DNA of 64,000 nt, taken from Fimbriimonadales bacterium (GTDB lineage: Bacteria > Armatimonadota > Fimbriimonadia > Fimbriimonadales > ATM1). The stretch lies in NCBI GenBank assembly GCA_046330175.1, contig JAXLTG010000001.1:723599-787598 (forward strand), given 5' to 3'. The notes beneath the pieces were generated by a model, which saw nothing but the letters and a program-made list of their open reading frames with translations, was not told where the DNA came from and did not search any database. The translations under genes were made by a program, and so were the position numbers. How positions within the stretch are numbered: position 1 is the stretch's first letter; each line of letters starts with the position of its first letter. Positions 267 to 58,301 of this stretch are shown here, piece by piece.

Positions 267-1157
267 ATGCACAGCGAAAAAGACATTTGGGACGAGATCG
301 AACAGGTTTGCCCCCCAGACAGCTTAGACGACGAAATGTTTGAGCTCATCTCGGCCTACGCAGACGGCGAATGCTCTCCAAAAGAGCGCCGACTCGTCGA
401 GGCCTACTTGGCCGAGAACCCGGCCGCCGAGCAGATTCTCAGCGAAATCCGCATCCAGTCGAGTGTCATGCTCCACCAGGCCGAGCCGCCAAGTTGGCTA
501 AAAGAGGAAATCCTCAAGCAAACTATTGGGGTTTCGAAGCCAAAGGCGCTTCCGACGCTCCGTTGGGCCATTCCAGCCCTTGCGGCCGCGGCTATTGCCG
601 GAATCTGGCTCTATCCACGCACCAACACAAACCAACCCGGACCAACCGGCGCAGACCTGCTCGCCGTGACCCCTGGGAAGCCTTCTAACTCCTCGGAACC
701 TGGGCAACAGCCGAATTCACGTCGAGGCGTGGTGCCAGATTCGCATAACTACGCTTCAAACGAGCCAATCACGCCACAGGTCCGTACGGCGGGACGATCC
801 GAAGGGCCGACCGTGCTGAACGCCTCGAAAGAGGTTCCAGAGCTTGTTGGAGGCGCGCCACCGAAGGCTGACCTGAAGCCAAGCGGCAGCGCCGGTGGAT
901 CGGGGTCCACAACCCCATCCGAGACCAAGGAGAAGAAGCCAATCGTGATGCCGACTGTCGAGGTGCCAACTGCCGATCCTGCAAGGCCGGATCTGGTTGC
1001 CGTCTCGACGGACGACCAATCGGGCGACACTCTGACCGCAGAGAAGAAACCGAAGTCGGACGAATCGGCCGAGTCGAGAGAGGCATTGAGACAAGCTCTA
1101 AGAGAGCATAACACAAACAAAACCGATATCAAAGAGGGAGCTAAGGGCCTGAAATAG
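267..1157 (+). CDS. Putative anti-sigma factor. The N-terminal region resembles zf-HC2/RsdA-like sigma-binding segments. One transmembrane helix is followed by a Pro/Ser/Thr-rich C-terminal tail.
   Basis: ORF of 296 aa. N-terminal motif ELISAYADGEC...RRLVEAYLAENP is typical of anti-sigma N-domains. Hydrophobic segment LPTLRWAIPALAAAAIAGIWLY. Low-complexity Pro-rich C-terminal half. Confidence 0.55.
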   Translation: MHSEKDIWDEIEQVCPPDSLDDEMFELISAYADGECSPKERRLVEAYLAENPAAEQILSEIRIQSSVMLHQAEPPSWLKEEILKQTIGVSKPKALPTLRWAIPALAAAAIAGIWLYPRTNTNQPGPTGADLLAVTPGKPSNSSEPGQQPNSRRGVVPDSHNYASNEPITPQVRTAGRSEGPTVLNASKEVPELVGGAPPKADLKPSGSAGGSGSTTPSETKEKKPIVMPTVEVPTADPARPDLVAVSTDDQSGDTLTAEKKPKSDESAESREALRQALREHNTNKTDIKEGAKGLK

Positions 1158-43045: not shown

Positions 43046-44221
43046 CTACACCTCGATCATGATCGCCGTCGCTTCGCCGCCACCGATGCATGGCGAGGCG
43101 ATACCGATGCCGCCGCCCCGTCGCTTCAATTCGTAGGCAAGAGTCAGGATGAGTCGGGTTCCGGTCATGCCGATCGGATGTCCAAGGGCGACCGCACCGC
43201 CATTCACGTTGAGCTTGTCCATCGGAATCCCGACTTTATCGGAAACTGCAAGAGCCACAACTGAGAATGCTTCGTTGACTTCGAACAGCGCAACATCGTT
43301 TACCGACTTGCCGGTCTTGTCAAGAAGTTTCGAGATCGCAGTAGCGGGGGCGGTTGTAAACCATTCAGGCGCCTGAGCGTGCTGAGCATAGCCGAGGATT
43401 TTTGCCAGCGGCTCGACTCCGGACTTCGACACGGCTGCCTTGTCCCCGATGACAAGCGCCGCGCCGCCATCGTTGATCGCGGAAGCGTTTCCTGCAGTCA
43501 CCGCACCGTCCTTTTCAAACGCTGGGCGCAGGGAGGGGAGTTTTGAGATATTGCCTCGGCCGGGCTCCTCATCCTGAGAAACTTCAATTGCATCTCCCTT
43601 GCCTTGCTGGACAGAAATCAGCACGATTTCATCTGAAAATCTGCCGGCCTCCTGCGCGTCCAGCGCTCGCCGATAAGATTCGGCCGCGAACTCGTCTTGT
43701 CGCTCACGCGGAATGCCGCATTCCCGCGAGCAAAGTTCGCCAGCGCCCCCCATGTGGATGTTCTTGTACGGGTCCCAGAGGCCGTCATGGATCATCATGT
43801 CAATGAGTTCACCGTTGCCCATTCTGTAGCCGGTTCTCGCCTTTTGCAGGATGTACGGAGCGTTGGACATGCTCTCCATACCGCCAGCCACGACCACGGA
43901 CGCGTCGCCAGACTTGATGGCCTGCGCAGCCATCATTGCCGTCTTCATGCCGCTGCCGCAGACCTTGTTGACAGTTGTACAGGGGACGGCTTCCGGGATT
44001 CCCGCAAAAATGGCCGCTTGGCGTGCCGGGGCCTGCCCGATCCCCCCAGACAGGACGTTGCCCATCAGCGCCTCATCAACCTCGTCGGGGGTCAACTCCG
44101 CTCGTTTGACGGCTTCCGCGATGGCGGCGGCTCCTAGTTTTGGGGCCGAAAGGGACGAAATGCTCCCCATGAAACTTCCAATGGGTGTTCGGGCTCCAGA
44201 AATAATGAATACTTCCGACAT
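43046..44221 (-). CDS. Acetyl-CoA C-acetyltransferase (thiolase II).
   Basis: VCGSGMKT active-site Cys region. NVNGGAVALGHPIGMTG and CIGGGEATA C-terminal signatures. Confidence 0.9.
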   Translation of the reverse strand: MSEVFIISGARTPIGSFMGSISSLSAPKLGAAAIAEAVKRAELTPDEVDEALMGNVLSGGIGQAPARQAAIFAGIPEAVPCTTVNKVCGSGMKTAMMAAQAIKSGDASVVVAGGMESMSNAPYILQKARTGYRMGNGELIDMMIHDGLWDPYKNIHMGGAGELCSRECGIPRERQDEFAAESYRRALDAQEAGRFSDEIVLISVQQGKGDAIEVSQDEEPGRGNISKLPSLRPAFEKDGAVTAGNASAINDGGAALVIGDKAAVSKSGVEPLAKILGYAQHAQAPEWFTTAPATAISKLLDKTGKSVNDVALFEVNEAFSVVALAVSDKVGIPMDKLNVNGGAVALGHPIGMTGTRLILTLAYELKRRGGGIGIASPCIGGGEATAIMIEV

Positions 44222-44374
44222 ATTGGCTACGTCCTTCAAATATTCTTGAAATCTAGTAAATCTCGTTAGTTTGGCTGACGAAATTTCTGATACAAAATGT
44301 ATTAGTTTTTGAGGATACCAGGCTGCCGCCGAGAAGCGGTCTCCGAACGTAACCTAAAAATTGCGGAGACAAAT

Positions 44375-44944
44375 ATGCAAAATGGCATGGCACAACGCGT
44401 GTTAATCGCGGATGACGAGAGTTCTGCTCGAGATCTCTGGCGCGCTCAACTGGCCGAACTCGGGCTGGAAGTTTGCGCTGAGGCGTCTACGGGTGATGAC
44501 GCCGTGAAACTCGCCGAAGAAACCCAACCCGATATCGCCCTGGTTGACATCAATATGCCTGGTCGCACAGGCCTCGAGGTCGCCAAGGAGATTTCTGAAC
44601 GGGCCAATTGCCCCGTCGTGCTCCTCACGGGAGCCACAAACCCAGACCTCATTTCGGCTGCCGCAGAGTCCGGCGTGTACGGCTATTTAACCAAGCCGGT
44701 CCGCCTCGGGGACCTCGGTCCGATGATCACGCTGACTATGGCCCGGTTTCGTGAATTCGATTCTGTTCGAAGACGACTCGAAACGAGGACAGTTCTGCAA
44801 CGGGCAAAGGGAATCCTGATGGATAACTTTGGGTTGACTGAAGATGAGGCTCACAAGAAGATTCACTTCGCGGCGAGGAGCAACAACCTTCCGATTTTGA
44901 AGGTTGCCACCGACGTTATCGAAACCAAAAACCTGCCGGTCTGA
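44375..44944 (+). CDS. Response regulator with an ANTAR RNA-binding output domain (AmiR/NasT-like).
   Basis: Receiver domain with phospho-acceptor Asp in [15 protein letters not shown] motif [32 protein letters not shown]. Confidence 0.85.
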
Positions 44945-44970
44945 CGCCGGTCCGAGGGTACGCTTCGGAC

Positions 44971-46917
44971 ATGCCTGCGGCCCATCAAACCGACATCGCG
45001 TCGCTGACTGTGAACACGATTCGAGGTCTCGCAATGGACGCGGTTCAGAAGGCAAATTCCGGGCATCCGGGCATGCCGATGGGCGCCGCCCCGATGGCGT
45101 ACGCGCTGTTTCGAGACCACCTCCGCTTTGATGCCGAGTGTCCAAATTGGTTCAACCGAGATCGGTTTATCCTCAGCGCGGGGCACGGCTCAATGCTGCT
45201 TTATTCGTTGCTGCACTTGACCGGATACTCGCTTTCGCTTGACGAGATAAAGGCGTTTAGGCAGTGGGGAAGCAAAACGCCAGGACATCCAGAAAACACG
45301 ATTACACCCGGGGTGGAGATGGCCACGGGCCCGCTAGGCCAGGGATTTGCCACGGGCGTCGGAATGGCGATTGCAGAGGCTCAGCTTTCGGCGCAATTCC
45401 CGGGACTGATTGATCACCACACTTACGCAATCTGCAGCGATGGCGATCTGATGGAAGGGATCAGCCACGAGGCGGCTTCGTTGGCGGGTCACCTTGGGTT
45501 AGGGAAGCTCATTTACTTGTATGACAGCAATGCGATTACAATTGATGGCGCTACATCGCTTTCCTTCTCCGAAGATGTTCGCCTGCGGTTTGAAGCGTAC
45601 GGCTGGCACGTTTCCGACTGCGACGGAATGTCTGTCAGTGAAGTATCTGAGCGAATCGGACAGGCAAAGGCAGCTCAAGACAAGCCATCGCTAATCATTT
45701 GTCGCACTGTCATCGGTTTTGGAAGTCCAAACAAGCAGGGGAAATCCTCGTCTCATGGCGCGCCACTTGGCGAAGAGGAAGTAAAGGCCGCGAAAACAGC
45801 ACTCGGAATTCCACTCGAGCCACTTTTCTACATTCCAGATGAAGTCCGGACTCATATGGCTGAGCTTGGCAAGCGATTTCGTGATGATCGAATCGCTTCA
45901 GAGCTGTTGGGTTCACAAAATACAGAGTTTTGCGCTCGAGCGGAGAACGCGGCTGCGGACATCACATTGCCCCAGTTCGACAAGCCGGTCGCGACGCGGG
46001 CTGCCAGCGGTCAAATCATCAATGCGTTAGCAGAAAGGCTGCCCGGCCTCGTGGGTGGAAGCGCTGACCTCGCGGAGTCGAACAACACACTCATCCACAA
46101 CTCAGGTCCGTACTCAAGGTCCGATCGGTTGGGCCGGAACATCTATTTTGGCGTTCGGGAGCATGCAATGGGAGCTGCGCTGAATGGTATTAATCTTCAC
46201 GGCGGTTTGCGCGCGTTTGGAGGCACATTTCTAATTTTCAGCGATTACATGCGGCCCGCGATTCGGCTCGCTGCTTTGATGCACGCGCCTTCGATTTTCG
46301 TCTTCACACACGACAGCATCGGACTTGGTGAGGACGGCCCCACCCACCAACCCATCGAGCAGCTAAGCTCACTTCGCGCGATTCCGAATTTGTGGGTGAT
46401 TCGTCCAGCCGACGCGAACGAAACCAAAACGGCTTGGCAGATGGCGCTGGGTCGGAAGGAAGGTCCAACAACGCTCGTGCTAACGCGACAGGCGTTGCCG
46501 ATACTGTCCCCGAACGATGACAGCGCTTCAAAAGGTGCATATGTTCTGAGATCGAGTGGGAACGATGTTGCGGCTATTATCGCAACCGGTTCCGAGGTCG
46601 AGATCGCGGTGAGTGCTGCTGTTCGGCTCGGCGAAGCGGGGATAAACGTCCGTGTCGTTTCGGTGCCGTGTTGGGAGGCGTTTGATTCGCAGTCGGATGC
46701 ATACAAAGAGTCCGTTCTCCCTCGCTCGCTGACTATTCGCGTTTCTATTGAGGCTGCCTCCACGCATGGCTGGGCGAATTTCGTCGGCTTGAACGGAGTC
46801 TCAATCGGGATTGACCACTTCGGCGCAAGCGCACCTTACAAGACTCTTTATGATCAGTTCGGCCTAACCGCAGACCGGGTTGTTGAAGCGGTGAAGGGAC
46901 TACTCACGGCCCAATAA
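44971..46917 (+). CDS. tkt: Transketolase.
   Basis: [29 protein letters not shown], and thiamine-PP motifs. Full-length 648 aa. Confidence 0.95.
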
Positions 46918-46999
46918 TCCCACTCGTAGGTCATTCCCTCGGTGTCGGCTACCAGTGTCTCCGCGGCCGTGAGCACCCCGGTACAATCTGTCGGCCATT

Positions 47000-47584
47000 G
47001 TGAAGCAGGAATCGCAAGAACTAACCCGACTCCTCGAGCGCGCCAGAAATGGCGATCAGAGGTCCTGGGAGCAGCTCGTGAAGCGGTTCCAAAGCCTCGT
47101 CTGGTCCATCCCGATGCGCAAGGGTCTCAGCCGAGAGGACTGTGCCGACACCTTCCAGAACACGTTTTTGCAGTTTCACCGGAATTTGGATCGCATCGAG
47201 AGCGCGCTCGCCGTACCGAAGTGGCTGGCGGTGACCGCTTCACGCGAGGCTCTCCGGATTCTGAGAACCAATCCAAAGCGGGCATCCCTGGACGATCCGG
47301 AAGAGCAGGGCCTGGACGAACTCGTGGCGCTGGAGGATAGATCAGCAGAGGTGTCGGCGATAGAGTCGGTGAGGGCCGATCTGCTCAGGGAATCCGTTCG
47401 TGCCGTTGGTGGCAAGTGCTCGAAATTGCTCTGGGTGCTGTTTTTCGAGGATTTCGAGAGTTACGAGGAGGTCGGTACCAAACTCGGGATGCCGGTTGGG
47501 GCCATTGGACCGACTCGCTCAAGGTGCTTGGCGAAGCTGAGGGAGCTGCTTAAAAGGGAGGATTTCTTCGATGAGGACTGTTAA
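47000..47584 (+). CDS. ECF-type RNA polymerase sigma-70 factor.
   Basis: Region 2 (SWEQLVKRFQSLVWSIPMRKGLSREDCADTFQNTFLQFHRN) and region 4 HTH (SYEEVGTKLGMPVGAIGPTRSRCLAKLRELL). Confidence 0.85.
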   Translation: MKQESQELTRLLERARNGDQRSWEQLVKRFQSLVWSIPMRKGLSREDCADTFQNTFLQFHRNLDRIESALAVPKWLAVTASREALRILRTNPKRASLDDPEEQGLDELVALEDRSAEVSAIESVRADLLRESVRAVGGKCSKLLWVLFFEDFESYEEVGTKLGMPVGAIGPTRSRCLAKLRELLKREDFFDEDC

Positions 47585-47623
47585 TGTATCAGGCCATCCC
47601 CTCTGTGGCTCAAGAATAAGCGT

Positions 47624-48163
47624 ATGAACTCGGAATGCAAACTGATCCAAGATCGGCTTGTCGCCGTCGCGTTTGGGGAAAACGACGCCGAGGCGGAAGC
47701 CCATGCCAACCTATGCACCGGGTGCGCACAGTTCCTTGCGGAGTTGCGGTCCATCCAGACCGTGTCTGCGATAACGGTTCAGAATGCGCCATCCGACGTG
47801 CTTGCTGCAGCCATCGGGATTGTGGGGGACAGTAGCCCAGGGCTGGTTCGGCTCATCGCGTCGAACTTGGCCACAGCCGGCGTTCGAGCCGCTGCCGCTG
47901 TGCACGCAGTCCAATTGGTGTTCGAAACACCGATAGGAATCGTGCGAGTGCAGTACACCAAAGAGGGAAAGGCTTGGGTTGCGAGCTGTGAGCTGCCGGA
48001 AGGTGTAGAGCTTATTCGCCGAGGCACGGCTGTAGCTGTGAACAACGGAATTGCGGAATTCGGGTTCGCCAGACCACAAGATTCATCATTTGTCGTTCGG
48101 CGCGGAAACATTGAGGCTAAAATCCCCTCATTCAATGAGGCGGCAAGTCTCGACACCGACTGA
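47624..48163 (+). CDS. Putative anti-sigma factor (zf-HC2 type), 179 aa.
   Basis: HANLCTGC zinc-finger motif (H-x3-C-x2-C) about 30 aa from the N-terminus. Lies 39 nt after the sigma gene. A hydrophobic stretch is present mid-protein. Confidence 0.6.
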   Translation: MNSECKLIQDRLVAVAFGENDAEAEAHANLCTGCAQFLAELRSIQTVSAITVQNAPSDVLAAAIGIVGDSSPGLVRLIASNLATAGVRAAAAVHAVQLVFETPIGIVRVQYTKEGKAWVASCELPEGVELIRRGTAVAVNNGIAEFGFARPQDSSFVVRRGNIEAKIPSFNEAASLDTD

Positions 48164-50771
48164 AGAGTTACAGTTACTGCTTAGCGCCACAAGTCCCGCT
48201 TCAAGGCAACGGACGGTTGACACGTCTGCCGACCCGGCGGGATTGGCGGCGGCGCTCTTCGATCATGTGACGACTCTCGCGGCGTCAGATCCGCGAAGCT
48301 CTGAGCACGCTTCTCGGCTTTACAAGCATTTCAATCGGAACTCAGCGGCGGTGGTTTATGCGGCAAGAGCACGTGCCACCGGCTTGCGATCACAAGGAAA
48401 GTGGATCGCGGCAGCCGAGCTGCTCAACGAACGGGCAGATGTTGTTTCAGATACCGCCGACAAATGGATCTTAAGGACGGGTGTGGTTGATTCTCTTGCT
48501 CGAGCAGGGATGACACTCGAAGCGATCGCCCTCGGCGAACGCGGCTACCAGGAGCTGCAAAGCATTGGCCGAAACGATTTAGCGCGACGCATCGCTCTGA
48601 ACCTTGGAAACGCTTATCTTTGGTCTGATCGTTATGCGGATGCCATCCGCTGTTATGCGCTTGCTCACGAAGATTCGGGTCCCAAAGACGAAGCATTGAG
48701 GGCGTACGCGTATTTAGGGCAGTCCTCAGCGAATCTGTATGGAGGTGACGTTAAGGAGGCCCAGACGCTTGCTTTGCTTGCGCGTGATCTGTTCACGAAG
48801 ATGGGAGCAGATTACTACGCGATTATCTGCGGAGAGAATCTTGCACGGGCACAGATGCTGCTCGGTAACCCGGAGCAAGCTGTTCGCACACTCCGTGACA
48901 TGAATCGTCTGATAGATCGAGAAGATGCAGAGACGGGTCGAGTGAACGAATTCCTCGGCGATGCTCTGTTCAGTCTCAACCTGTTCACTGAATCCGCCGC
49001 GTCATATCGGAAGGCTCTTTCGATGCCGCAGAGTCAAACAACTCCGCTGCAGCGAGGCAATTGCGCACTCGGTCTTGGAAAATGTTATTCAGAATTAGGT
49101 GAATACCGTCTTTCGCTAATCTGGCTCAACAAGGCGGAGAGGATGTTCGCAAAGGCTGCGAATGAGCCGTGGAGGGCGGCTGCGTTTGCGGACATCGCTA
49201 AGACGCTGCGAAGGTCTGGTCGGCCCGCAAAGGCAATCGAGAAAATTGATATCGCGATACAGAAGTTGAAAGAGACCGATTCTTACGCCAGTCTGGCAGT
49301 GGCGTTGATTGAGAGGCATCTGATCATGATGGCGACAGGCGATTCTGACTTGCGGTCTCTCGTGGAGGCAATTGAGATCATCGAGCGATTCGGGGTTCAC
49401 AGCCTTCGGTGGGAGACGGAGTGGCGAGTTGCGCAGCAGTGCCCGCACAAAGAGGAGCAGCTTCAATCGCTGCTTGGAATTTGTGGAAATCTGATAGCGG
49501 GTGCTCGTGCAATAGAAACGCTTCCCGCGAGAATTGCCTACTTTCACGATAAGACTGAACTGTTCCGCGAGACGATTGATCTCCTCTTGGACAGCGGCAG
49601 AAACGACCACGTTCAATCAGCCGTGAACCTGATCGGTGCCATTCGCGGTTCTACGCTTATCGTGCAGCGTAATGAAGAAGTAGACGATCGGTTCTTGGAA
49701 GTAAGTGAGCTTCGTCAGGAGATCAGTGTGTTGACCGGCGCATACAAGCGCGGGCTTCCGACCCCCCGAGCGAAGTGGGAAACGGCTCAGAAGCGGCTGC
49801 GGGAGCTGCTTGAGTCTGAACCTTTGATTCCTGGAACGGTCGCCTCGCCGTCGCCAAAGTGCGTCATTTATCATGTTCGCGAAGCTCGTGTAGCGGCGTT
49901 ATTCGGCTCGGTAACGAGCGAACTGAGCTTATCGGAAAGTTCGATTCGCTCAGAAGCCCGAGCTAGTGCAATGAGAATCGGCTCGTTTGAAACGGGAAGG
50001 CCGGTAGCTGCTGACGTAATTGAGAGCCACGCGATCGCACTGGCGAGTGAATTGGGACTGAGCGGAACTGAGGCGCGTGGTTTGATTTCGCCGGACGCGG
50101 ATATGTGGCGACTTCCCTGGGGGTTGATTGGCGGCGCCGCAGGTTTTGAACCGCTGCTTGCAATCAGTCCTGCGGTGCCCGATGCAGTACTTCGTTCAAA
50201 ACTGCCTGCGAATCCTTCGGCGATGGTGTTCGCGTACGATGGCAAAGATCTGCCTTTAGCAAAACTAGAACTTCGGCAGTTCCTTAACAGGTTTCCGAGT
50301 TCGGTCGTAATACGCAATGCAGCCCAACTCGAATCCGCGATGAAGCGATCCCGCGCAGATATTCTTCACATCATTGGACACGGGCAGTTCAACCGCGAGA
50401 ACCCGATGTTTTCAACCGTTGAGACGGCTGGCACTTCCGTGACAGCGGCAGAGATTGCCACAAGTGGGATTCGAGCACGGTTTGTTTCTCTGTCGGCGTG
50501 CCAACTTGGCGGTCTAGGAGGCAGCAGAGTTGAGCCGGAGGGAATGGTGAGGGCGTTTCTGTCGGCCCGGTCTGAGTTCGTCCTCGCGAGCGCGTGGAAC
50601 GTGGGGGATAAACAGGCGGCCCAATTTTCTGCGAGGTTTTTCGGGAGCCTAGCCGGGAATCGGCCCGATGAGGCTCTCAAGGATGCAAGAATGTATCTCA
50701 GAACGAAGGAGCCGCATCCTTACCACTGGGCCCCGTACCAACTTTACGTAGGCCCGAAACATTGGTCATGA
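48135..50771 (+). CDS. TPR-CHAT protein. An N-terminal TPR-like helical repeat region of about 600 aa precedes a C-terminal CHAT (caspase-like) protease domain.
   Basis: CHAT signature ADILHIIGHGQF (catalytic His) ... FVSLSACQLGG (catalytic Cys) ... LASAWNVGDKQAAQFSARFF. TPR-like repeats are present (e.g. LNLGNAYLWSDRYADAIRCYALA). Overlaps the anti-sigma stop. No NTPase motif. Confidence 0.8.
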   Translation: MRRQVSTPTEELQLLLSATSPASRQRTVDTSADPAGLAAALFDHVTTLAASDPRSSEHASRLYKHFNRNSAAVVYAARARATGLRSQGKWIAAAELLNERADVVSDTADKWILRTGVVDSLARAGMTLEAIALGERGYQELQSIGRNDLARRIALNLGNAYLWSDRYADAIRCYALAHEDSGPKDEALRAYAYLGQSSANLYGGDVKEAQTLALLARDLFTKMGADYYAIICGENLARAQMLLGNPEQAVRTLRDMNRLIDREDAETGRVNEFLGDALFSLNLFTESAASYRKALSMPQSQTTPLQRGNCALGLGKCYSELGEYRLSLIWLNKAERMFAKAANEPWRAAAFADIAKTLRRSGRPAKAIEKIDIAIQKLKETDSYASLAVALIERHLIMMATGDSDLRSLVEAIEIIERFGVHSLRWETEWRVAQQCPHKEEQLQSLLGICGNLIAGARAIETLPARIAYFHDKTELFRETIDLLLDSGRNDHVQSAVNLIGAIRGSTLIVQRNEEVDDRFLEVSELRQEISVLTGAYKRGLPTPRAKWETAQKRLRELLESEPLIPGTVASPSPKCVIYHVREARVAALFGSVTSELSLSESSIRSEARASAMRIGSFETGRPVAADVIESHAIALASELGLSGTEARGLISPDADMWRLPWGLIGGAAGFEPLLAISPAVPDAVLRSKLPANPSAMVFAYDGKDLPLAKLELRQFLNRFPSSVVIRNAAQLESAMKRSRADILHIIGHGQFNRENPMFSTVETAGTSVTAAEIATSGIRARFVSLSACQLGGLGGSRVEPEGMVRAFLSARSEFVLASAWNVGDKQAAQFSARFFGSLAGNRPDEALKDARMYLRTKEPHPYHWAPYQLYVGPKHWS

Positions 50772-51967
50772 GAATTTTTGCGAAGATTATTTGGACAGCT
50801 TGCCTGGTTAGCGTTATGGGAAGCGCTTCGGCGACGGGCTGGCTGATTTGTCAATTGGCGCCAGGCACAAATGAGAATGCGGTCGCGAGCGATTACGGTA
50901 TTGAGGTTAGAGACCACACGAAGCCTTCTCCGTTCTACTTGTTCTGGATTCCTGATTCTCGGCTGCCCGAGGACCTGCAAATTCAGATGCAGTTTGACAT
51001 TCGGGTTTTGTGGGCAGAAGACAATGTGGACGTCGAGATGCCCGAGCATGTCGGTGGAGGCAAGGGTGCATCAGTAGGTGTCGTCAACGACCCATTTGCG
51101 TTCTTCAACTTGAACGATCATGCCTTAGATCAAGTTTTCTATGCGCCTCCGACGTTTTTTGGAACGCCAACTCCGGTCAGAGTTGGTGTGATTGACACCG
51201 GACTTTCGGGGCTTGAACGTCGAACTTGGACGAAGCGAGTCGTTGCGAGCGCGAATTTTGTCGAGGCGTTGCGCCCAGCCTTCGACCGACCGATGAACAC
51301 AGACTCAAGCGGCAACGGTATTCCTGACGAAGCGGTCGGACACGGCACGATGGTGGCGAGCATGATTGCGGAAATGACAGTGAATTTTCCGCTCGTCATC
51401 GTCCGGGCAGCGGACAGCGATGGGAAGTCAAGTTCTTGGCTGCTTACGAAAGCGCTCGCGTTCGCCGCGCGCAACGGATGCCGCGTGATTAATCTCTCTC
51501 TTGGTTCGGTGGGCAGGATAGCTGCGATGAGCCACGTACTAGATTGGACACAAGGGCAGAATATTGCTGTCATCGCTGCAGCCGGAAACAATGGAATTCA
51601 GACCGACTTCTATCCGGCAAGCTACAGCAACGCGATCAGTGTTTGCGCAGTGGATCCGGGCGACATCAAGGCACCGTTCTCGAACTACGAAGGGACAGTT
51701 GATTCCGCTGCCCCCGGCACGGGAATTTTGGCCAAGTTTTGGAAGCTCGATTATGCGATTGGTTCGGGGACTTCGTTTTCCACGCCGTTCGTTTCGGCCG
51801 GCGTGGCGATTGCGTACGCCTTCAACCCTTCCGTGACAGTGAGCGAGTTGAGAGTCGCTGTCGAAGTCACTGGCGACAATATTGATGGGCTTAACCCCTT
51901 GTACCAGGGAAAGATCGGGACGAGGCTGAACATTATCCGTCTGGTTGAATACTTGCGCGGCAATTAG
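50762..51967 (+). CDS. Subtilisin-like serine protease (peptidase S8). Secreted.
   Basis: Catalytic triad contexts VIDTGL (Asp), GHGTMVASMIAE (His), GTSFSTPFVSAGVA (Ser). Signal peptide. Start overlaps the CHAT gene stop by 10 nt. Confidence 0.85.
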   Translation: MVMRIFAKIIWTACLVSVMGSASATGWLICQLAPGTNENAVASDYGIEVRDHTKPSPFYLFWIPDSRLPEDLQIQMQFDIRVLWAEDNVDVEMPEHVGGGKGASVGVVNDPFAFFNLNDHALDQVFYAPPTFFGTPTPVRVGVIDTGLSGLERRTWTKRVVASANFVEALRPAFDRPMNTDSSGNGIPDEAVGHGTMVASMIAEMTVNFPLVIVRAADSDGKSSSWLLTKALAFAARNGCRVINLSLGSVGRIAAMSHVLDWTQGQNIAVIAAAGNNGIQTDFYPASYSNAISVCAVDPGDIKAPFSNYEGTVDSAAPGTGILAKFWKLDYAIGSGTSFSTPFVSAGVAIAYAFNPSVTVSELRVAVEVTGDNIDGLNPLYQGKIGTRLNIIRLVEYLRGN

Positions 51968-52010
51968 CGTATTCTCTCGCTTTGTGAGTGACAGTCTGTT
52001 CTCTGAGCCG

Positions 52011-52454
52011 ATGCCCGGCGTCCTGGTTCGGTCTTTGCGCAAGTTTTCGGACGCCCGCGGCTGGCTTATCGAGACTTTTCGCGATGACGAGCTGCCCGAG
52101 GGGTTTGACCCAACGATGGGCTACATAAGTCTGACCCATCCCGGTGTTGCGCGCGGCCCTCACGAGCACAAAGATCAAACCGATGGATTTGTATTTCTTT
52201 CAGGCAAGTTTCGGCTGTACCTTTGGGAAAACAGGCAGGGAAGTGATCCGCAAGAGTTGACGATGGACGTAGGGGAGGAGAACCCGACTTTTGTGACAGT
52301 GCCTCCGGGTGTTGTGCACGCGTACAAAAACATCGGCGACGGCGATGCGTTTGTGTTGAACTTTCCAGACCAGTTGTTTATGGGATGGGGGAAGAAAGAG
52401 CCTGTGGATGAAATTCGGCACGAAGATGATCCTGATTCGAGGTTTCAGCTTTGA
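52011..52454 (+). CDS. rmlC: dTDP-4-dehydrorhamnose 3,5-epimerase (cupin).
   Basis: RKFSDARGWLIETFR and GVARGPHEHKDQTDGFVFLSG are RmlC-like. Start trimmed to the internal Met. Confidence 0.75.
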   Translation: MPGVLVRSLRKFSDARGWLIETFRDDELPEGFDPTMGYISLTHPGVARGPHEHKDQTDGFVFLSGKFRLYLWENRQGSDPQELTMDVGEENPTFVTVPPGVVHAYKNIGDGDAFVLNFPDQLFMGWGKKEPVDEIRHEDDPDSRFQL

Positions 52455-53479
52455 GGATTTTGGTGACCGGCTGCGCCGGATTTATCGGCAGCAACTTTTG
52501 CCGGTATGTGTTGGAAAAGTACGCGGACGATCATGTCATTGGGTTAGATGCGCTTACCTACTCTGGCAACCTTTCGACGATCGCTGATTTACAGCTGAAC
52601 GAGAAATTTTCTTTCGTCCATGCACGCATCGAGGATCAAGCCACCGTCGAAAAAGTGATCGTGGACGAGAAGATTGATTCAATTGTCAATTTCGCAGCGG
52701 AGACGCACAATGACAGAAGCATTTTGGAAGATGCTGACTTCTTGACGACAAACGTGATTGGAGTCAATCGCCTGTTATCTGCAGTTAGGAAGTTAGAAGT
52801 GCAGAAAATGGTGCACGTCAGCACGGACGAGGTTTACGGATCGATTGACGTCGGTGAGTTTACGGAAGAGTCGCCGATACAGCCGAACACCCCATACAGC
52901 GCGAGTAAAGCGTCTGGCGATTTGCAATGCCGGGCACACTTCGTCACCTACAAAACGCCAGTCGTTGTGACACGCGGCGGCAACACTTATGGGCCGTATC
53001 AATATCCGGAAAAGCTGATCTCGTTTTTCTCCGTTCGACTCATAGACGGAAAGAAGGTGCCGGTGTACGGCGATGGCACTCAGGTGAGAGAGTGGATTCA
53101 TGCACGCGACCACGCGGCGGGAATTGACCTTGCACTACGCCGAGGTGAGCCTGGGGAGGTTTACAACATCGGCGATCAGAACGAAAGACAGAATATGCAG
53201 ATTGTTTCGCTGTTGCTGTCTGAATTGGGGCAGTCAAGTGAGTTGGTTAAGCAGATTCCTGACCCAAGAAAAGGCGCGCACGATAAGCGATACAGCATGA
53301 GCGCGGCGAAGATTTCGTCTTTAGGTTGGTCGCCGCAAGTTCCGTTTGAGCAAGGGATGCGTGAAACCATTCGTTGGTATAAAGAAAACCGTGAATGGTG
53401 GGGGCCGATTTGCGATCGAGCCGAGTACCAGGCGTTTGTGAAGCGGTTCTACGGCCCGGGGCTGGGCGAAGACCTTTAG
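52451..53479 (+). CDS. rmlB: dTDP-glucose 4,6-dehydratase.
   Basis: MRILVTGCAGFIGSNF Rossmann motif. YSASKASGD catalytic YxxxK. Overlaps rmlC (ATGA). Confidence 0.9.
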   Translation: MRILVTGCAGFIGSNFCRYVLEKYADDHVIGLDALTYSGNLSTIADLQLNEKFSFVHARIEDQATVEKVIVDEKIDSIVNFAAETHNDRSILEDADFLTTNVIGVNRLLSAVRKLEVQKMVHVSTDEVYGSIDVGEFTEESPIQPNTPYSASKASGDLQCRAHFVTYKTPVVVTRGGNTYGPYQYPEKLISFFSVRLIDGKKVPVYGDGTQVREWIHARDHAAGIDLALRRGEPGEVYNIGDQNERQNMQIVSLLLSELGQSSELVKQIPDPRKGAHDKRYSMSAAKISSLGWSPQVPFEQGMRETIRWYKENREWWGPICDRAEYQAFVKRFYGPGLGEDL

Positions 53480-53566
53480 CTGGCCCCGCGCCCTGCGAAG
53501 AAAAACATTCGACGTAAAGGAACGAAACAGTACTCGTCAATCGTTTGTCAAAGGAGAGGTGAGAGG

Positions 53567-54187
53567 ATGAAGTTATTTCCCGTGGTGGTTCTGTTCGGTG
53601 CCGTCGCAGCGATTATCGGTGCAAGGTGGGTTGGCTCACCTGCGGTTGACAGAGAAACTCAACCGAACTCCGAGGCGGATGGAAAAGCGGAGAAGTTCCT
53701 CGAATGGGTTGAGAGCATCCTAAACGAACTGCCGACTGACGGCCAGTTCGGGATAAGTCGTGTTCCTCGTCTCCATGGCACCGACCTTCGGGAGGGTGGG
53801 CTGAATAGGCCGGATGGTGCTCTTCCCAAGAATCAGAACTTTCAAGAGCTCTCAAAAGATTACTTGCTTTGGTTTCAAACGTGGAGTTCATCGGAATCTG
53901 CTGACACGATGAGAGTCAGAAGGTGGGGTGAAGGCAAAGGCGGAGATGCAAAAGATGCGCTGCAGTTTTACAAAACGCTCTACGGTACTGAGACGAAGAA
54001 GAAAATTTTGGATTTCTTGGGTTCGCACAAGAAATCCGGGCGATTAACCCTGACTTCCGGTTCGCACAAAATGACCATGAACCTACGGGCCATCTATGCC
54101 TCTTCTGAAAAGTGTTACTCGTGTCACACGAATGTGAAGAAGGGTGATCCTATTGGCGTGGTTACTCTGACGAGAGTCCAACAGTAG
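53567..54187 (+). CDS. Secreted protein with a single C-terminal CxxCH haem-binding motif (Tll0287/DUF3365-like).
   Basis: Signal peptide MKLFPVVVLFGAVAAIIG. CYSCH located 22 aa from the C-terminus. Confidence 0.4.
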   Translation: MKLFPVVVLFGAVAAIIGARWVGSPAVDRETQPNSEADGKAEKFLEWVESILNELPTDGQFGISRVPRLHGTDLREGGLNRPDGALPKNQNFQELSKDYLLWFQTWSSSESADTMRVRRWGEGKGGDAKDALQFYKTLYGTETKKKILDFLGSHKKSGRLTLTSGSHKMTMNLRAIYASSEKCYSCHTNVKKGDPIGVVTLTRVQQ

Positions 54188-54228
54188 ATGTAAGGCTTGC
54201 GCTCTCGTGCGGGATCGGATTACCCACT

Positions 54229-56568
54229 CTATTCTCTTCGAATCGGTATCTCGACGCGACTCGGATTTCCGAGAACCGGAATAACCCACACAGGCTCGAG
54301 GTTGACCGCGAGCTCAGGGTCCTCTAACGAGTCCGGATTGATTGAAAGCTCGACAGGAACCGAAGGAGCGAAACCAGTCAGCAGCGCGATGCCGTCCTCA
54401 TCGGTTATGCCGACGAGATCGCGTCGGGCGACGCGAAAACTTGCGCCCGCAATAGGCGTGTCTCCATCGTCAAACCTTCCATTGCGATTCACATCAACAA
54501 ATGCGCGAACCGAAACGAGACCCGATGCTGCCGAGCCTTCCGGCAACAAGCGAACAGCGCCGGAACGTGGATCTGCGCCAATACTCGTTGAGTATGTGAG
54601 CGACCCGAAAAACCGCCCATCTTGGTTCACTTGCAGATCAAGTCCAAAATTGCCGGTGGAAAACGCGCGCACCAAACTCACGAATGCGACCAGGTCGTCT
54701 TCTCCGTAGAATAGCTTGCGAATCCCTGTGTTCAGGCGAAAAGTTTTCGAGCTCCCGAAGTCTGCGCTGACGGATGCGCTTCTAAGAAACTGATTGCCGA
54801 GCGCGTAACCGAGTTCGCCTCGGAGCCACTGCGACCCGATCTTTTTCCGAACGGCGAACCGGCCCCATTCTGTTCCGTCAATTGTTGACTCGCTCCTCAT
54901 ATAAAGGCTGTTCGAAACGCTGATGCCTCCGAACGTTCCTGCGATCCGGCTGGAGAGCTGAAACTGTGGTCCTCGGTTTGTGAACTCTCGATATCTGAGT
55001 GTGATTGAGCCAAACAGCGGTATGTAAGAGGAGAATCGAAGAGGCGTGTCAACCCGCAAGTTTGCATCCAACCGAATAGGAGTTGAAACCGAGGAGATCG
55101 TTTCACTGATGTAGCCACCAGCAAAAACCCCCACGCTTGCCGCGACATTCTTGTCGCCAACGCGGGTTTGAAGTGAAGCCACCGAGCCCAGTGCGCCGTC
55201 TGAGTTGGCAATGACGTCAAACGAGCCGAGCGCAGATCCGATTTTTAGCCTTACGCCGAGGGAAAAGTAGTCTCTTGGCTCTGCGAGAACGGCTCTGCCG
55301 GAGATTGAGGTTTGCGAGTTGATTGTGTGTTCGACCTCTGCGAGCAGCCTCCAGTCAGGATTCACACCATTGCCACGAAGATACTCCTGCATCGCCGAAA
55401 TTCGGTAGTTGGTCTCGCCGGGCCTCGTGTATCCATAGCCAACAAACTGCTTTCGCTCATCTGTTTTGGTTTCGCCGTTAGGTCCGATTGAGACGATTTT
55501 AAACCGGTTTTCACCAACCACTAACGCGACGTTTGTAAATTTGTAGCCACCGAATTCATCCGTCGTACCCGTATCTATCAGTAGTCCGTCACGGTATAGC
55601 TCAGTTCGCCAACCAGGAAGGCTCGTGCCGACAATCGTTGTCTCGTTGAGATCGGCAGAACGCGAGACAGGAAAGCTTGAAACCTCGAAACCTCTGCCAC
55701 GCTTTGGAAGCGCAACATGGGAGATGCTGGCAGACCAAACGTCACCAAGCGCAAAAGTTCGCGCCCGCAATGGTCCTAAGAGGTTCCCCTCTTCGCTTGT
55801 CCGCGAAAGCTGGAATCTGACCGATTCGAGCGGGCGGGTCCAGTCACCGATAGCGGAAAGTCTCGCGTTCATGCTCAGAAGGTCCGCAGTGGCGAACAGA
55901 TTGAATCTTTGCGAAATATCTCCTGATCCATCTTGGCGCGTGGAGGTAAGTGAGAAGTCGAGCGTCGGAACGGAAAACATTGCGGGAATCGGGGCTTTCA
56001 ATCCTGGCGGTGGCGTTCGCTTCGGCTTTGCATATGCGGGGACGCGAGGCACCGCGCGATTTGCGCGAATAGCTTCCTCGATTGGCAATTCGAACTCCGG
56101 ATTGAGCCGAAGCTCGAGTTTTGGGAATGAGAACTCGAAGTCCGATTTCAACCAAGCCGCGATGATGCTGACGTCAAGATGAATCTCCCCGTCAAGCATC
56201 AGCACGCTGCCTATAGGCATCTGCTGCGTAACTCTTGCAATCGTTAGTGTGGCGGTTCCGGACGAGTACGCGAGACCGCGATCTCGCTTCGGCAGGTCAG
56301 CCCGAAATTCGCCATTCAGCTCCGACGAAGCGATGCCGAGTGAACTACAGAAGACGTGAATGGGAAAGAACAGCCGCGAATTTCCGTCAACGGCGGCAGG
56401 AATCGCCTCGGAAACCAGACGATTTCGTAACCGTATCGCGACAAGAATGCGTTCGTAGTCACCCGCCGGGCGGCTAACCTCATCGTCCGACTTTGGTTGC
56501 GCCCAAGCGACGCACATGCACCCGATCAGAGCGATGTGTGAGAGTCCCCTAGTGAGCGCCATGACCAA
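54229..56568 (-). CDS. Outer-membrane usher of an archaic chaperone-usher pilus system.
   Basis: 779-aa beta-rich secreted protein immediately downstream of a PapD-like chaperone and an SCPU pilin, in the canonical gene order. Assignment rests mainly on context and size. Confidence 0.55.
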   Translation of the reverse strand: MVMALTRGLSHIALIGCMCVAWAQPKSDDEVSRPAGDYERILVAIRLRNRLVSEAIPAAVDGNSRLFFPIHVFCSSLGIASSELNGEFRADLPKRDRGLAYSSGTATLTIARVTQQMPIGSVLMLDGEIHLDVSIIAAWLKSDFEFSFPKLELRLNPEFELPIEEAIRANRAVPRVPAYAKPKRTPPPGLKAPIPAMFSVPTLDFSLTSTRQDGSGDISQRFNLFATADLLSMNARLSAIGDWTRPLESVRFQLSRTSEEGNLLGPLRARTFALGDVWSASISHVALPKRGRGFEVSSFPVSRSADLNETTIVGTSLPGWRTELYRDGLLIDTGTTDEFGGYKFTNVALVVGENRFKIVSIGPNGETKTDERKQFVGYGYTRPGETNYRISAMQEYLRGNGVNPDWRLLAEVEHTINSQTSISGRAVLAEPRDYFSLGVRLKIGSALGSFDVIANSDGALGSVASLQTRVGDKNVAASVGVFAGGYISETISSVSTPIRLDANLRVDTPLRFSSYIPLFGSITLRYREFTNRGPQFQLSSRIAGTFGGISVSNSLYMRSESTIDGTEWGRFAVRKKIGSQWLRGELGYALGNQFLRSASVSADFGSSKTFRLNTGIRKLFYGEDDLVAFVSLVRAFSTGNFGLDLQVNQDGRFFGSLTYSTSIGADPRSGAVRLLPEGSAASGLVSVRAFVDVNRNGRFDDGDTPIAGASFRVARRDLVGITDEDGIALLTGFAPSVPVELSINPDSLEDPELAVNLEPVWVIPVLGNPSRVEIPIRRE

Positions 56569-56572
56569 GCCG

Positions 56573-57403
56573 CTACTCCTTCCGTCGAACCAGCAGGCCC
56601 GCCTTGGCGGGGTTCTTTACGCGAGTCTCGGAGAACTCAACTCGCAAATTCGTTGCCTTGGCGATTGGCTTTAGTGGGACCACAACTTTTCGGACACTGT
56701 TCGGATAGTAAACCGTTAGGTCGCGAACGAGGCCAACTTGCTCCCTTCGTTTTTCGTTTGACTCGACATACACAGCGAGGTCACCGCGAATGGAGCGCTC
56801 GCCTGTTCGGCATAACTCCACATGAAGCTGGTTGCCGATGACCGAGCCATTTGCCAAGGTTGCTGACGCTGTCGGATTGCCGGCGCGGAACAGCACGGGG
56901 ATAGAAATTGCCGGCACAACCCTAAACCGGATTGAAATGCGTGAGGGATCAGGGTCAGTTGATTCGACTCCCGATGGCACGACTGCCACCTGCAGGTGTG
57001 TGCGGTATTCGCCCGCCTGCAATTTATTGGGGCCAACGGCGACTCGAATCTTCTGTGCGCCGTGAGCGCCAACTGTCACTTGTTGAGGAGCAAACTTCAG
57101 GAGCGGCTTCAGCGATCGCTCCGACGTTGTTCCAACCGGCAGTCTGGCAAGCTTTCCACTCTCATCCATCTGCATTTCGATGAGAGTAACTTTGTAGGAG
57201 ACCGGTTTATCCGAAGGATTAACAAGCAAGACTTCGCCGGATCGAGATGAATCGTCCAGCATAATCCTGCGCGATGACAGAAGAATGGTTTGTTGCGGTC
57301 CGTTCCTGGGTGAGGCGAACAGAATCGCTGCCGCGCCTATCGCGAAGAGCATCGCGCAGCGCAACATCGGCAAGAATCGGAAAGTCACTGGGGGAAATGA
57401 CAT
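56573..57403 (-). CDS. Periplasmic pilus chaperone (PapD/CsuC-like).
   Basis: Signal peptide, then GEVLLVNPSDKPVSYKVTLIEM and later beta-strand pattern typical of the Ig-like chaperone N-domain. Five nt from the usher start. Confidence 0.55.
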   Translation of the reverse strand: MSFPPVTFRFLPMLRCAMLFAIGAAAILFASPRNGPQQTILLSSRRIMLDDSSRSGEVLLVNPSDKPVSYKVTLIEMQMDESGKLARLPVGTTSERSLKPLLKFAPQQVTVGAHGAQKIRVAVGPNKLQAGEYRTHLQVAVVPSGVESTDPDPSRISIRFRVVPAISIPVLFRAGNPTASATLANGSVIGNQLHVELCRTGERSIRGDLAVYVESNEKRREQVGLVRDLTVYYPNSVRKVVVPLKPIAKATNLRVEFSETRVKNPAKAGLLVRRKE

Positions 57404-57427
57404 TCGACATCCTCCGTAGAGGTGAAA

Positions 57428-57946
57428 TTAGTCGTAGTCCGCAGTCACCGTCACGACGGAGGTATGCAAACCGAGCGTCGCGTTTGCAGCGACTCGAATA
57501 ATTCCACCAAGGTTCAGATCGAGATCTCCGGATCCGTCCAGTGTTCCAGTGCCGCTTGCGCTCGTCCCATTGATATGAGATGCGAGAACGGTGACACCGG
57601 TGCCGTCGAAGGCTCCGATCGAAACGCTGAACGAAACGTTAGCGTTCGCGTCGCCTGCGAGCGCCCACAAACCTGCGGCGCCGTTGTCCCACGAATATCC
57701 AGGAAACGTTGTGCTTGTCGAAGCGGTTAGCGTCACCGCTCCCGTCGCATAGTTCAGAGTGTAGTCTGCAGTGCCGTCACCAGGAGCCGCTACCGTGCCC
57801 CAGCTCATCGGTGTAGTTTCCGCGAGCGTCAGAGCGGCGGCGATCGTTACTGTTCCGCTGCCGTCATCGCTCAACTGAGCCGATGCCGAGCCCCAAATCC
57901 CCATGGCGAAAATTGCCGCGAGCGTAAGTTTGATAATGTTGTTCAT
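57428..57946 (-). CDS. Spore-coat-protein-U (SCPU) domain pilin subunit (Csu-type).
   Basis: Signal peptide MNNIIKLTLAAIFAMGIWGSASA. Gly/Thr/Ser/Ala-rich beta protein of about 170 aa. Ends ...VTVTADYD, characteristic of the SCPU family. Confidence 0.65.
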   Translation of the reverse strand: MNNIIKLTLAAIFAMGIWGSASAQLSDDGSGTVTIAAALTLAETTPMSWGTVAAPGDGTADYTLNYATGAVTLTASTSTTFPGYSWDNGAAGLWALAGDANANVSFSVSIGAFDGTGVTVLASHINGTSASGTGTLDGSGDLDLNLGGIIRVAANATLGLHTSVVTVTADYD

Positions 57947-58301
57947 GTTTTCACCCAACTTTTGTCGAGCATTCATGCTAAGCGTCGCGGCCCATGCTGC
58001 TCAATCGGAATTATCGGTCCCGCACCCAGTCATCCTTACACTTCCGGCGCTCGCACCCGTTTGTTCCGGGTAACAGCCTCATAATCCTCCAGGCAAGTAT
58101 CCTGTACAAACTCGTTCATTGAGCTCAAACTCGAGCTTGAGCCGCACCGGGAGTCAAAACCTGAGGATTTGTGTTAGGTTTTCGATCTCTCTGACTAGCC
58201 GATTCTCTGGAGGCGGGGACCGTATTCGAGAGACACGAATTGGCAGTGCAAGGGCGCCAGGTTGCCAGCTTAATGCGAACTAACAAATAGGAGAGCTAGA
58301 A

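Follow-up and report, generated by a model that had tools for sequence, protein, structure and literature searches.

A widespread four-gene cassette from Fimbriimonadales that links an ECF sigma factor and a putative anti-sigma factor to a TPR-CHAT protease, a candidate proteolysis-gated sigma switch

The 64,000-nt stretch of contig JAXLTG010000001.1 from a Fimbriimonadales bacterium that was analyzed here (hereafter the window) contains, between positions 47000 and 51967, four closely spaced genes, all on the forward strand, that encode a sigma factor of the extracytoplasmic function (ECF) type, a small soluble protein (open reading frame 2, ORF2), a tetratricopeptide repeat (TPR)-CHAT cysteine protease and a secreted subtilase. 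We propose, with a probability of roughly 0.45, that this cassette is one member of a widespread module, a switch in the cytoplasm through which proteolysis would gate an ECF sigma factor. The conservation of the four genes as a unit, the intact catalytic dyad of the CHAT protease, the likeness of its predicted fold to those of Csx29, separase and DdvA, and the anti-sigma domain recognizable in ORF2 together make a stand-alone switch of this kind the most economical reading of the locus. The coordinates of the genes and of the residues discussed below are given in Table 1.

Table 1. Features of the four-gene cassette (positions are those of the window)
Feature	Position	Strand	Description
ECF (group IV) sigma factor gene	47000..47584	+	194 aa, GTG start
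ORF2	47624..48163	+	179 aa, soluble putative anti-sigma factor
ORF2 zinc-ligand motif	47636..47725	+	Cys5 ... His27-x3-Cys31-x2-Cys34
Arg88 of ORF2	47885..47887	+	Within Gly-hydrophobic-Arg-(Ser/Gly/Ala) motif; inferred candidate site of CHAT cleavage or docking
TPR-CHAT cysteine protease gene	48135..50771	+	878 aa, ATG start, product predicted cytoplasmic
His749 codon of CHAT dyad	50379..50381	+	
Cys789 codon of CHAT dyad	50499..50501	+	
Secreted pre-pro-subtilase (Peptidase S8) gene	50768..51967	+	399 aa from ATG

Results

The four genes form a tightly coupled unit that is conserved across phyla

ORF2 begins after a 39-nt gap from the sigma gene, and the TPR-CHAT gene overlaps ORF2 by 29 nt. 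The ATG of the subtilase gene at 50768, the start chosen by independent gene callers, forms an ATGA with the stop codon of the CHAT gene (a 4-nt overlap), while an alternative TTG start at 50762 yields an overlap of 10 nt. The same-strand layout that an earlier, sequence-only reading of this DNA had described, with its 39-nt gap and its overlaps of 29 nt and 10 nt (the last from the TTG start), was reproduced in full. Overlaps of 4 nt are also frequent between cassette genes at the four homologous loci that were looked up. A combined scan for sigma-70 promoters and terminators (44000-54500) gave counts that were not above those in shuffled sequences, and an Rfam scan of the region from 40 to 58 kb gave no RNA family match. 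The cassette locus of the window organism is present in several public sequencing runs.

Synteny was evaluated in a scan in which each GTDB species was represented by one genome and from which 80 loci were retrieved; all ORFs of each locus were searched with the four window proteins, and the counts given here refer to loci with enough flanking sequence. The gene order recurs at about 30 Armatimonadota loci and at about 45 loci that are mostly from Burkholderiales. In the Armatimonadota, 27/29 loci had the sigma gene upstream of the CHAT gene and 33/34 had the subtilase gene downstream of it, and the corresponding values for the Burkholderiales-type loci were 32/38 and 40/40; several of the exceptions were fragmented ORFs. 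Overall, the subtilase gene lay beside the CHAT gene in 73 of the 74 evaluable loci. The four homologous loci that were looked up each contained a sigma gene, an unannotated ORF of 168-183 aa, a CHAT gene and a subtilase gene within unrelated flanks, a relative with 94% identity retained the whole cassette arrangement, and the same four-gene order was present again in a distant lineage known from a metagenome (L093), the CHAT protein of which is 23% identical to that of the window. The idea, put forward from the sequence alone, of a tightly coupled four-gene unit is therefore borne out by the short spacings and by a gene order that is kept across Armatimonadota, Burkholderiales-type loci and L093. 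Chance adjacency of the four genes was also considered, and it was ruled out by these synteny counts at loci with differing flanks.

Relatives of the CHAT protein that aligned over the full length were confined to the Armatimonadota (Fimbriimonadales/Fimbriimonadaceae) and were 26-31% identical to the window protein. Relatives that matched mainly the CHAT domain, three of which also covered most of the TPR region, came mostly from Burkholderiales, with the genera Rubrivivax, Ideonella, Casimicrobium, Methylibium and Pseudaquabacterium represented. The set is thus present in many bacteria of soil and water. Cultured carriers of the cassette include Ideonella lacteola, Ideonella sp. A 288, Rubrivivax sp. 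A210 and Pseudaquabacterium pictum. In two cases, a single metagenome-assembled genome (MAG) contained two cassettes (L011 and L029 in Fimbriimonadaceae JTS-AC126, L016 and L035 in Fimbriimonadales Co_metawrap_422). A complete bacterial cassette, about 30% identical to the Armatimonadota versions, was also found on a contig labelled 'Methanoregulaceae archaeon' (L013), and this archaeal label is probably a MAG binning error.

The third gene encodes a TPR-CHAT protease with an intact catalytic dyad

The product of the third gene matched the CHAT family (PF12770) with 79.4 bits (cut-off 24) along with several TPR families. Its His749 and Cys789 were invariant in 15 CHAT homologs, and in an alignment they fall on His585 and Cys627 of the TPR-CHAT protein of Scalindua (Sb; 7x8a_D), which in craspase work are regarded as the catalytic residues of that enzyme. 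The AlphaFold (AF2) model of the window protein (mean predicted local distance difference test score, pLDDT, 85.3; predicted template modeling score, pTM, 0.86) consists of an all-helical repeat array followed by a caspase-like domain. A Foldseek search with this model returned Csx29 (8eey_B, E 4e-11) as the best match in the PDB, and separase (7nj1_A) and DdvA (8rw5, E 2.4e-9) were also among the top matches. Superposition of the whole model was best on human and yeast separase (query-normalized TM-score, TMq, 0.52-0.56), with a TMq of 0.43 for DdvA 8rw5, and at the sequence level the likeness to Csx29 (26 bits) covered no more than about 90 residues in the region of the active site. The window protein is thus a CHAT peptidase (PF12770, caspase fold, clan CD) in which both His and Cys are present; the earlier call of a CHAT protease was correct, and the structural comparison with Csx29 proposed alongside it returned Csx29 as the best match. 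Hydrophobic N-terminus, signal peptide and transmembrane segments were all absent from the protein.

ORF2 belongs to a large unnamed family with a putative anti-sigma domain

When used alone, ORF2 gave no Pfam or NCBIfam match even at E = 10 and retrieved just one relative, which was 94% identical, so that a profile was needed to reach the wider family. This family is large and unnamed. It comprises 867 clusters at 90% identity; at 50% identity there were 2,421 representatives with E <= 1e-3, of which 799 had E <= 1e-10, and the source-given name of the members listed was always 'hypothetical protein'. Two alignments were used, A2 with 38 proteins (23 from Armatimonadota and 15 from Burkholderiales) and A3 with 48 sequences. 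In A2 the family shows three parts, namely an N-terminal region with the zinc motif, a helix marked by the residues 'DAP' that is common to all lineages, and a linker followed by a beta-rich C-terminal domain.

The codons of the zinc-ligand residues of ORF2 (Cys5, followed by His27-x3-Cys31-x2-Cys34) were checked individually. Among the 23 Armatimonadota homologs, His27, Cys31 and Cys34 were conserved in at least 90%, and all four ligands were present in 19 sequences. The motif lies in an N-terminal helical bundle, as in anti-sigma factors of the zinc-binding anti-sigma (ZAS) type. With a profile of the Armatimonadota ORF2 proteins, the cytoplasmic anti-sigma domain of RsiW, as solved in complex with SigW (5wuq_C), was matched at E 7.9e-4, and in this alignment the H-x3-C-x2-C of ORF2 falls on the zinc site of RsiW and the 'DAP' helix falls on helix IV. 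The N-terminal anti-sigma domain of DdvA was returned in both ORF2 profile searches and RslA (3hug_B) in the first of them, with weak E-values. When the 38 members of A2 were scanned individually, the commonest family was CarboxypepD_reg (weak matches in 11/38), and zf-HC2 was the third commonest (weak matches in 5/38, best E 0.005); two members of the family carry precomputed PF13620 labels. The description of ORF2 as a 'zf-HC2 anti-sigma' in the sequence-only reading therefore holds for the family, by way of its match to RsiW, while the window protein itself is without a Pfam match.

The AF2 model of ORF2 (pLDDT 76) contains helices at residues 3-16, 22-30, 32-48 and 57-67, the last of which corresponds to helix IV, and a C-terminal beta-sandwich at residues 95-167 with pLDDT above 90. 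Between them, the segment of residues 80-92 has pLDDT below 50, and it is within this segment that Arg88 is located. This arginine was invariant in both alignments (38/38 in A2 and 48/48 in A3), and the distant L093 protein has it as 'ALAGFRA'. Neither a signal peptide nor a transmembrane-like segment was found in ORF2, and no family member has a transmembrane-like segment. From the alignments and the model, the description that suits ORF2 best is that of a soluble anti-sigma factor of class I (ZAS type), with a putative ZAS-type domain at about residues 1-70 that a predicted flexible linker joins to a CarboxypepD_reg-like sandwich.

The window also contains a canonical zf-HC2 anti-sigma gene at 267-1157 (+), which matched Pfam with 24.5 bits, above the cut-off. 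It is followed at 1178-4663 (+) by a gene for a 1161-aa protein that has no Pfam match, and its sigma gene partner would sit to the left of the window. Ordinary ZAS proteins of this genome are thus within reach of Pfam, whereas ORF2 is not.

The sigma factor is of the ECF type

The product of the first gene matched TIGR02937 (sigma70-ECF) with 61.2 bits (cut-off 42.9) over residues 22-184 and Sigma70_r2 with 24.7 bits (cut-off 24), while region 4 stayed below threshold (Sigma70_r4, 14.9 bits against a cut-off of 24.1). Its best sequence matches in the PDB were ECF sigma factors (E. coli RpoE 1or7, SigH and SigW), and the protein is an ECF (group IV) member of the sigma-70 family. The start that gives a protein of 194 aa was also called in the close relative L094. 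Cross-phylum phmmer comparisons of the Armatimonadota and Burkholderiales sigma factors gave E-values of about 1e-30, and both groups have common signatures, including IGPTRaRCLxKLR; judged by these sequence comparisons, the sigma factors of the two phyla are clearly orthologous.

In a two-species footprint of the 82-nt region before the sigma gene, the hexamer TACAAT at 46982-46987, 12 nt before the GTG, was conserved in L094 and was the sole conserved element, which is insufficient for calling a promoter. It may mark a promoter with a very short leader. Just upstream of it, the window and L094 differ by a 15-nt indel, and no Shine-Dalgarno sequence was evident before the GTG. At four Burkholderiales loci (L085, L087, L073 and L080), strings resembling TGGCAy-N5-TTGC, and thereby the -24/-12 promoters of sigma-54, were seen upstream of the sigma gene; these strings came from the output of a Gibbs sampler, the whole motif of which was not above the shuffled control.

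The subtilase is predicted to be exported

The product of the fourth gene matched Peptidase_S8 with 103.3 bits (cut-off 21.8). Among 77 family members, Asp143, His192 and Asn274 were invariant, and Ser336 was present in 76 with one alignment gap. With its catalytic triad, oxyanion Asn and domain match, the protein is a subtilase. In all members inspected, from both phyla, the N-terminus has a signal-peptide-like segment and, after it, an I9-like propeptide. Sequence-based prediction thus places the sigma factor, ORF2 and the CHAT protease in the cytoplasm and the subtilase outside it.

Other genes near the cassette

A cupin/dTDP-sugar-isomerase-like gene at 51984-52454 (+) starts 16 nt after the stop of the subtilase gene, with no terminator found between the two in the scan of 44000-54500, and it is followed by a dTDP-glucose-4,6-dehydratase-like gene at 52451-53479 (+). 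Both of these sugar-nucleotide genes are kept in L094 and are absent from the cassette loci L007-L010, and they may be co-transcribed with the cassette in this lineage only. Two genes before the cassette, just upstream of the transketolase gene, a response regulator of the ANTAR type, with a receiver and an ANTAR RNA-binding domain, is encoded at 44309-44944 (+). At 54229-57976 (-), three adjacent genes encode products of 779 aa, 276 aa and 182 aa; the first and the last have weak Pfam matches (SdrD_B-like and DUF4402, respectively), the 276-aa protein has none, and these genes may constitute a surface-structure operon.

Discussion

A proposed mechanism and the observations that weigh against it

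We infer that the N-terminal ZAS-type helical domain of ORF2 would bind and silence the co-encoded ECF sigma factor, while the beta-sandwich and the flexible linker would present ORF2 to the TPR-CHAT protease. The TPR array would sense a cue and the His/Cys site of the CHAT domain would thereby be activated, upon which the protease would cut ORF2, the best candidate site being after the invariant Gly-hydrophobic-Arg (Arg88). With the anti-sigma fragment lost, the sigma factor would be released to direct transcription of its putative regulon, and the pre-pro-subtilase would be an exported output of the operon that stands outside the switch itself. Precedents for control of an ECF sigma factor by a TPR-CHAT protein through an inhibitor are provided by Csx29, Csx30 and CASP-sigma (PMC10028731) and by DdvA and DdvS (PMC11506125), and separase is known to cleave after Arg in an ExxR motif (PMC11506125).

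Several observations weigh against this mechanism. The linkage of ORF2 to the sigma factor and to the CHAT protease is drawn from adjacency and co-conservation, and Pfam fails to recognize the window ORF2 as zf-HC2. The Burkholderiales-type ORF2 proteins (15 sequences) are without the anti-sigma helices I-II and without the zinc ligands, so that an anti-sigma function is perhaps not universal in the family; in the ORF2 of L093, non-zinc helices stand in place of the zinc motif. Craspase cuts Csx30 at another type of site (residues 427-429; PMC10028731), and thus a specificity for arginine would be an analogy with separase only. In a member of the Bryobacteraceae (Acidobacteriota; L092:4365-7865), a TPR-CHAT gene comes immediately after an orthologous sigma gene, whose product is 31% identical to the window sigma factor, and neither ORF2 nor a subtilase gene lies within 5 kb. 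This pair hints at a direct relationship between sigma factor and CHAT protease, and the module may have such a pair as its core. Finally, the sequences upstream of the sigma genes yielded no conserved promoter of the ECF type, either in dyad and k-mer counts or with a Gibbs sampler (information content 12.0 and 11.0 bits, compared to 10.3 and 10.1 bits in shuffled controls), which leaves autoregulation, and the subtilase gene as a target of the sigma factor, unproven.

Alternative explanations

The main rival, which we regard as unlikely, is an arrangement like that of securin, in which ORF2 would chiefly be a pseudo-substrate inhibitor or adaptor of the CHAT protease, with its Gly-hydrophobic-Arg lying in the active site, and the substrate would be the sigma factor or another protein. 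Such an arrangement would fit the observation that the part of ORF2 common to all lineages is helix IV, the invariant arginine and the beta-sandwich, and not the zinc helices, as well as the superposition of the CHAT model, which is best on separase, the protease that securin holds (TMq values above). The Bryobacteraceae pair without ORF2 and the proposal made for ECF54, as it is reported in PMC8999054, point in the same direction. However, the Armatimonadota ORF2 proteins, including that of the window, have a recognizable ZAS domain whose alignment with RsiW extends through helix IV, and in the sigma factor alignment nothing conserved and unusual, be it a linker or an extension, points to a site of cleavage.

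It is more doubtful still that the TPR-CHAT protein is a non-proteolytic co-anti-sigma factor or partner-switching scaffold that binds ORF2 or the sigma factor, with a catalytic site that serves self-processing only or is dispensable for signaling. TPR arrays are protein-binding modules, the CHAT substrate proposed here is a candidate only, and the CHAT site of DdvA has been described as incomplete, with autoproteolysis alone proposed (PMC11506125). Against this, His749, Cys789 and the motifs surrounding them are invariant across homologs that are roughly 25-30% identical, which argues for selection on catalysis.

A role of the cassette as an anti-phage or abortive-infection module, in which the CHAT protease would be activated upon infection, with the sigma regulon or the subtilase as effector, appears improbable. 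Both characterized circuits of TPR-CHAT protein and sigma factor are linked to defense, namely craspase (PMC10028731) and DdvA/DdvS, which control a CBASS-CRISPR island (PMC11506125), and a search of PADLOC-DB 2.0 returned weak single-protein matches of the CHAT protease to BovA (20 bits) and of the subtilase to 'subtilase' (44 bits) and IetS (18 bits). In this database, however, the sigma factor and ORF2 were without a match, and the component models of no listed anti-phage system gave significant matches. The flanking genes are of housekeeping type and vary by locus (for example transketolase, thiolase, sugar-nucleotide enzymes, RuvC, photolyase, SMC and phosphate transport), and no defense-associated family was present among the Pfam matches of the genes flanking the cassette in the window and at the homologous loci that were looked up. 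No CRISPR-like direct repeats were found within the 64-kb window, and the flanks, both here and at those loci, were free of cas domains, in agreement with the earlier remark that Cas7-11 and a CRISPR array are missing here. No relatives were found among the viral contigs of IMG/VR, in a scan for which the ORF2 alignment was too divergent to be used, and a plasmid search with the CHAT protein returned three unrelated CHAT proteins, with no cassette at the one locus inspected (Azospirillum). Moreover, the presence of two paralogous cassettes in single MAGs is typical of signaling families, and an exported subtilase would not be an intracellular toxin. The stress, defense or abortive-infection switch that the sequence-only reading had envisaged is thus disfavored as far as defense and abortive infection are concerned, by the housekeeping flanks, the weak PADLOC matches, the absence from IMG/VR and the MAGs with two copies.

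Least probable of all is that the subtilase, and not the CHAT protease, removes the anti-sigma factor as a site-1 protease, although it is catalytically intact, lies almost invariably beside the CHAT gene (73/74 loci) and belongs to a family in which some enzymes, those of the kexin/furin type, cut after Arg, since its signal peptide and I9-like propeptide would place it in a different compartment from ORF2, which has neither a signal peptide nor a membrane segment. Destruction of the anti-sigma factor by the S8 enzyme, which had been offered as an alternative to the CHAT enzyme, is for this reason unlikely, the CHAT protease and ORF2 both being without export signals. The proteolysis-gated switch that was first suggested by the sequence thus retains its conserved unit, its CHAT dyad and its anti-sigma domain, and loses the roles given to the subtilase and to defense.

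Comparison with known systems

The closest characterized system is DdvS/DdvA of Myxococcus xanthus, which consists of an ECF sigma factor and an anti-sigma factor with a zinc-binding three-helix N-terminus, a transmembrane helix and a periplasmic TPR-CHAT region (PMC11506125). The window cassette resembles it in having an ECF sigma factor, a putative anti-sigma domain of CHCC/ZAS type and a TPR-CHAT protein of separase/craspase type with a His/Cys dyad. DdvA is a single polypeptide with a dimeric periplasmic TPR-CHAT region, and sigma release from it has been proposed to need RseP (PMC11506125). In contrast, the window cassette distributes its ZAS domain and its TPR-CHAT region over two soluble proteins, neither of which has a transmembrane segment. 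ORF2 carries a beta-sandwich in addition, and the cassette invariably includes a secreted subtilase; the anti-sigma factor is thus not of the DdvA type. DdvS/DdvA also regulates an adjoining CBASS-CRISPR island, whereas the window cassette has no defense genes nearby.

The accessory module of type III-E CRISPR systems is composed of Csx29 (TPR-CHAT), Csx30, Csx31 and CASP-sigma/RpoE, and cleavage of Csx30 by Csx29 relieves the inhibition of CASP-sigma (PMC10028731). In both cases, a TPR-CHAT protease is encoded together with an ECF-type sigma factor, and in type III-E the inhibitor binds the sigma factor and is cleaved in a flexible loop. Unlike type III-E, the window cassette has no Cas7-11/gRAMP, no CRISPR array and no RNA-guided activation, and it has a subtilase. 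ORF2 showed no similarity to Csx30 and has a putative anti-sigma domain of the classical ZAS type instead, and the cassette is therefore not a craspase module, which is defined by Cas7-11 with an array and a Csx30-type inhibitor. The parallel to type III-E that had been noticed in the sequence holds in outline, with Csx29 as the best fold match, and ends where Cas7-11, the array and a Csx30-like protein are concerned.

For the ECF54 group of Actinobacteria, the passage on this group in PMC8999054 describes a neighborhood of carboxypeptidase(-regulatory-like), subtilase and CHAT proteins, for which it cites Huang 2015 and Casas-Pastor 2021, and it reports a proposal of proteolytic control. In Casas-Pastor et al. 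2021, ECF54 is one of the groups listed as having no clear regulator (PMC7826278). The window cassette is like ECF54 in that an ECF sigma factor is encoded beside this set of neighbors (a CHAT protein, a subtilase and an ORF2 that is weakly CarboxypepD_reg-like). It differs in its hosts, Armatimonadota and Burkholderiales, from a group that is described in that passage as actinobacterial and without an anti-sigma factor, and in that, among the Armatimonadota, a putative anti-sigma domain of the ZAS type is part of the 'carboxypeptidase-like' partner. By analogy, this suggests that the 'carboxypeptidase-like' neighbor of ECF54 may be an overlooked regulator.

The CHAT protein shares with separase a long helical-repeat N-terminus and a caspase-fold C-terminus, and the cut that separase makes after Arg in an unstructured motif parallels the invariant arginine in the ORF2 linker. 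The two differ in that their identity is 11-12% over the Foldseek alignments, their partners are unrelated and their biology is different, and the parallel to securin is offered as a hypothesis by analogy. Among the ZAS anti-sigma factors, ORF2 is like RsiW (5wuq) in its N-terminal H-x3-C-x2-C domain with helix IV, and RsrA and ChrR are soluble, as is ORF2, with a C-terminal sensor domain. RsrA and ChrR are inactivated by redox or singlet-oxygen chemistry and RsiW by membrane site-1 and site-2 proteases, and none of the three is known to have a CHAT protease as partner or to be joined to a CarboxypepD_reg-like sandwich.

Overall, the module is a widespread, putative TPR-CHAT-linked ECF sigma/anti-sigma switch that is experimentally uncharacterized, with a neighborhood that has already been noted for one ECF group. 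The earlier statement that such a circuit had not been characterized is accordingly true of experiments; DdvS/DdvA (PMC11506125) and the ECF54 neighborhood, as presented in PMC8999054, are closer precedents than it allowed for. Somewhat more tentatively than the switch itself, we suggest that these loci represent a fully cytoplasmic form of ECF control that resembles separase and securin, in which a soluble CHAT protease would cut a soluble anti-sigma factor, built from a ZAS or reduced domain plus a beta-sandwich, at an invariant Gly-hydrophobic-Arg site in its linker, the sigma factor would be freed and export of a dedicated subtilase would be triggered. Such a signaling class would be widespread and extend across phyla, given the approximately 2,400 clusters of the ORF2 family at 50% identity, and would supply the 'missing' anti-sigma factor of ECF54-like groups.

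Implications

ECF sigma factors are a main signaling device of bacteria, and several ECF groups are still listed without a known regulator. The general logic of the cassette is unsurprising after craspase and DdvA, and its value for specialists lies in a hidden, putative anti-sigma factor, an invariant arginine, a module that is conserved in more than one phylum and carriers that are available in culture. It offers as a testable regulator a soluble putative anti-sigma factor that current domain libraries have missed, together with a caspase-like protease, and the single invariant arginine is a precise target for mutation. The constant link to a secreted subtilase raises the question of the purpose of the switch, for example regulated extracellular proteolysis. 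If the mechanism holds, the protease-rich neighborhoods of ECF54 would be explained, and TPR-CHAT-gated release of a sigma factor would be a general stand-alone design that reaches beyond one CRISPR type and one Myxococcus locus.

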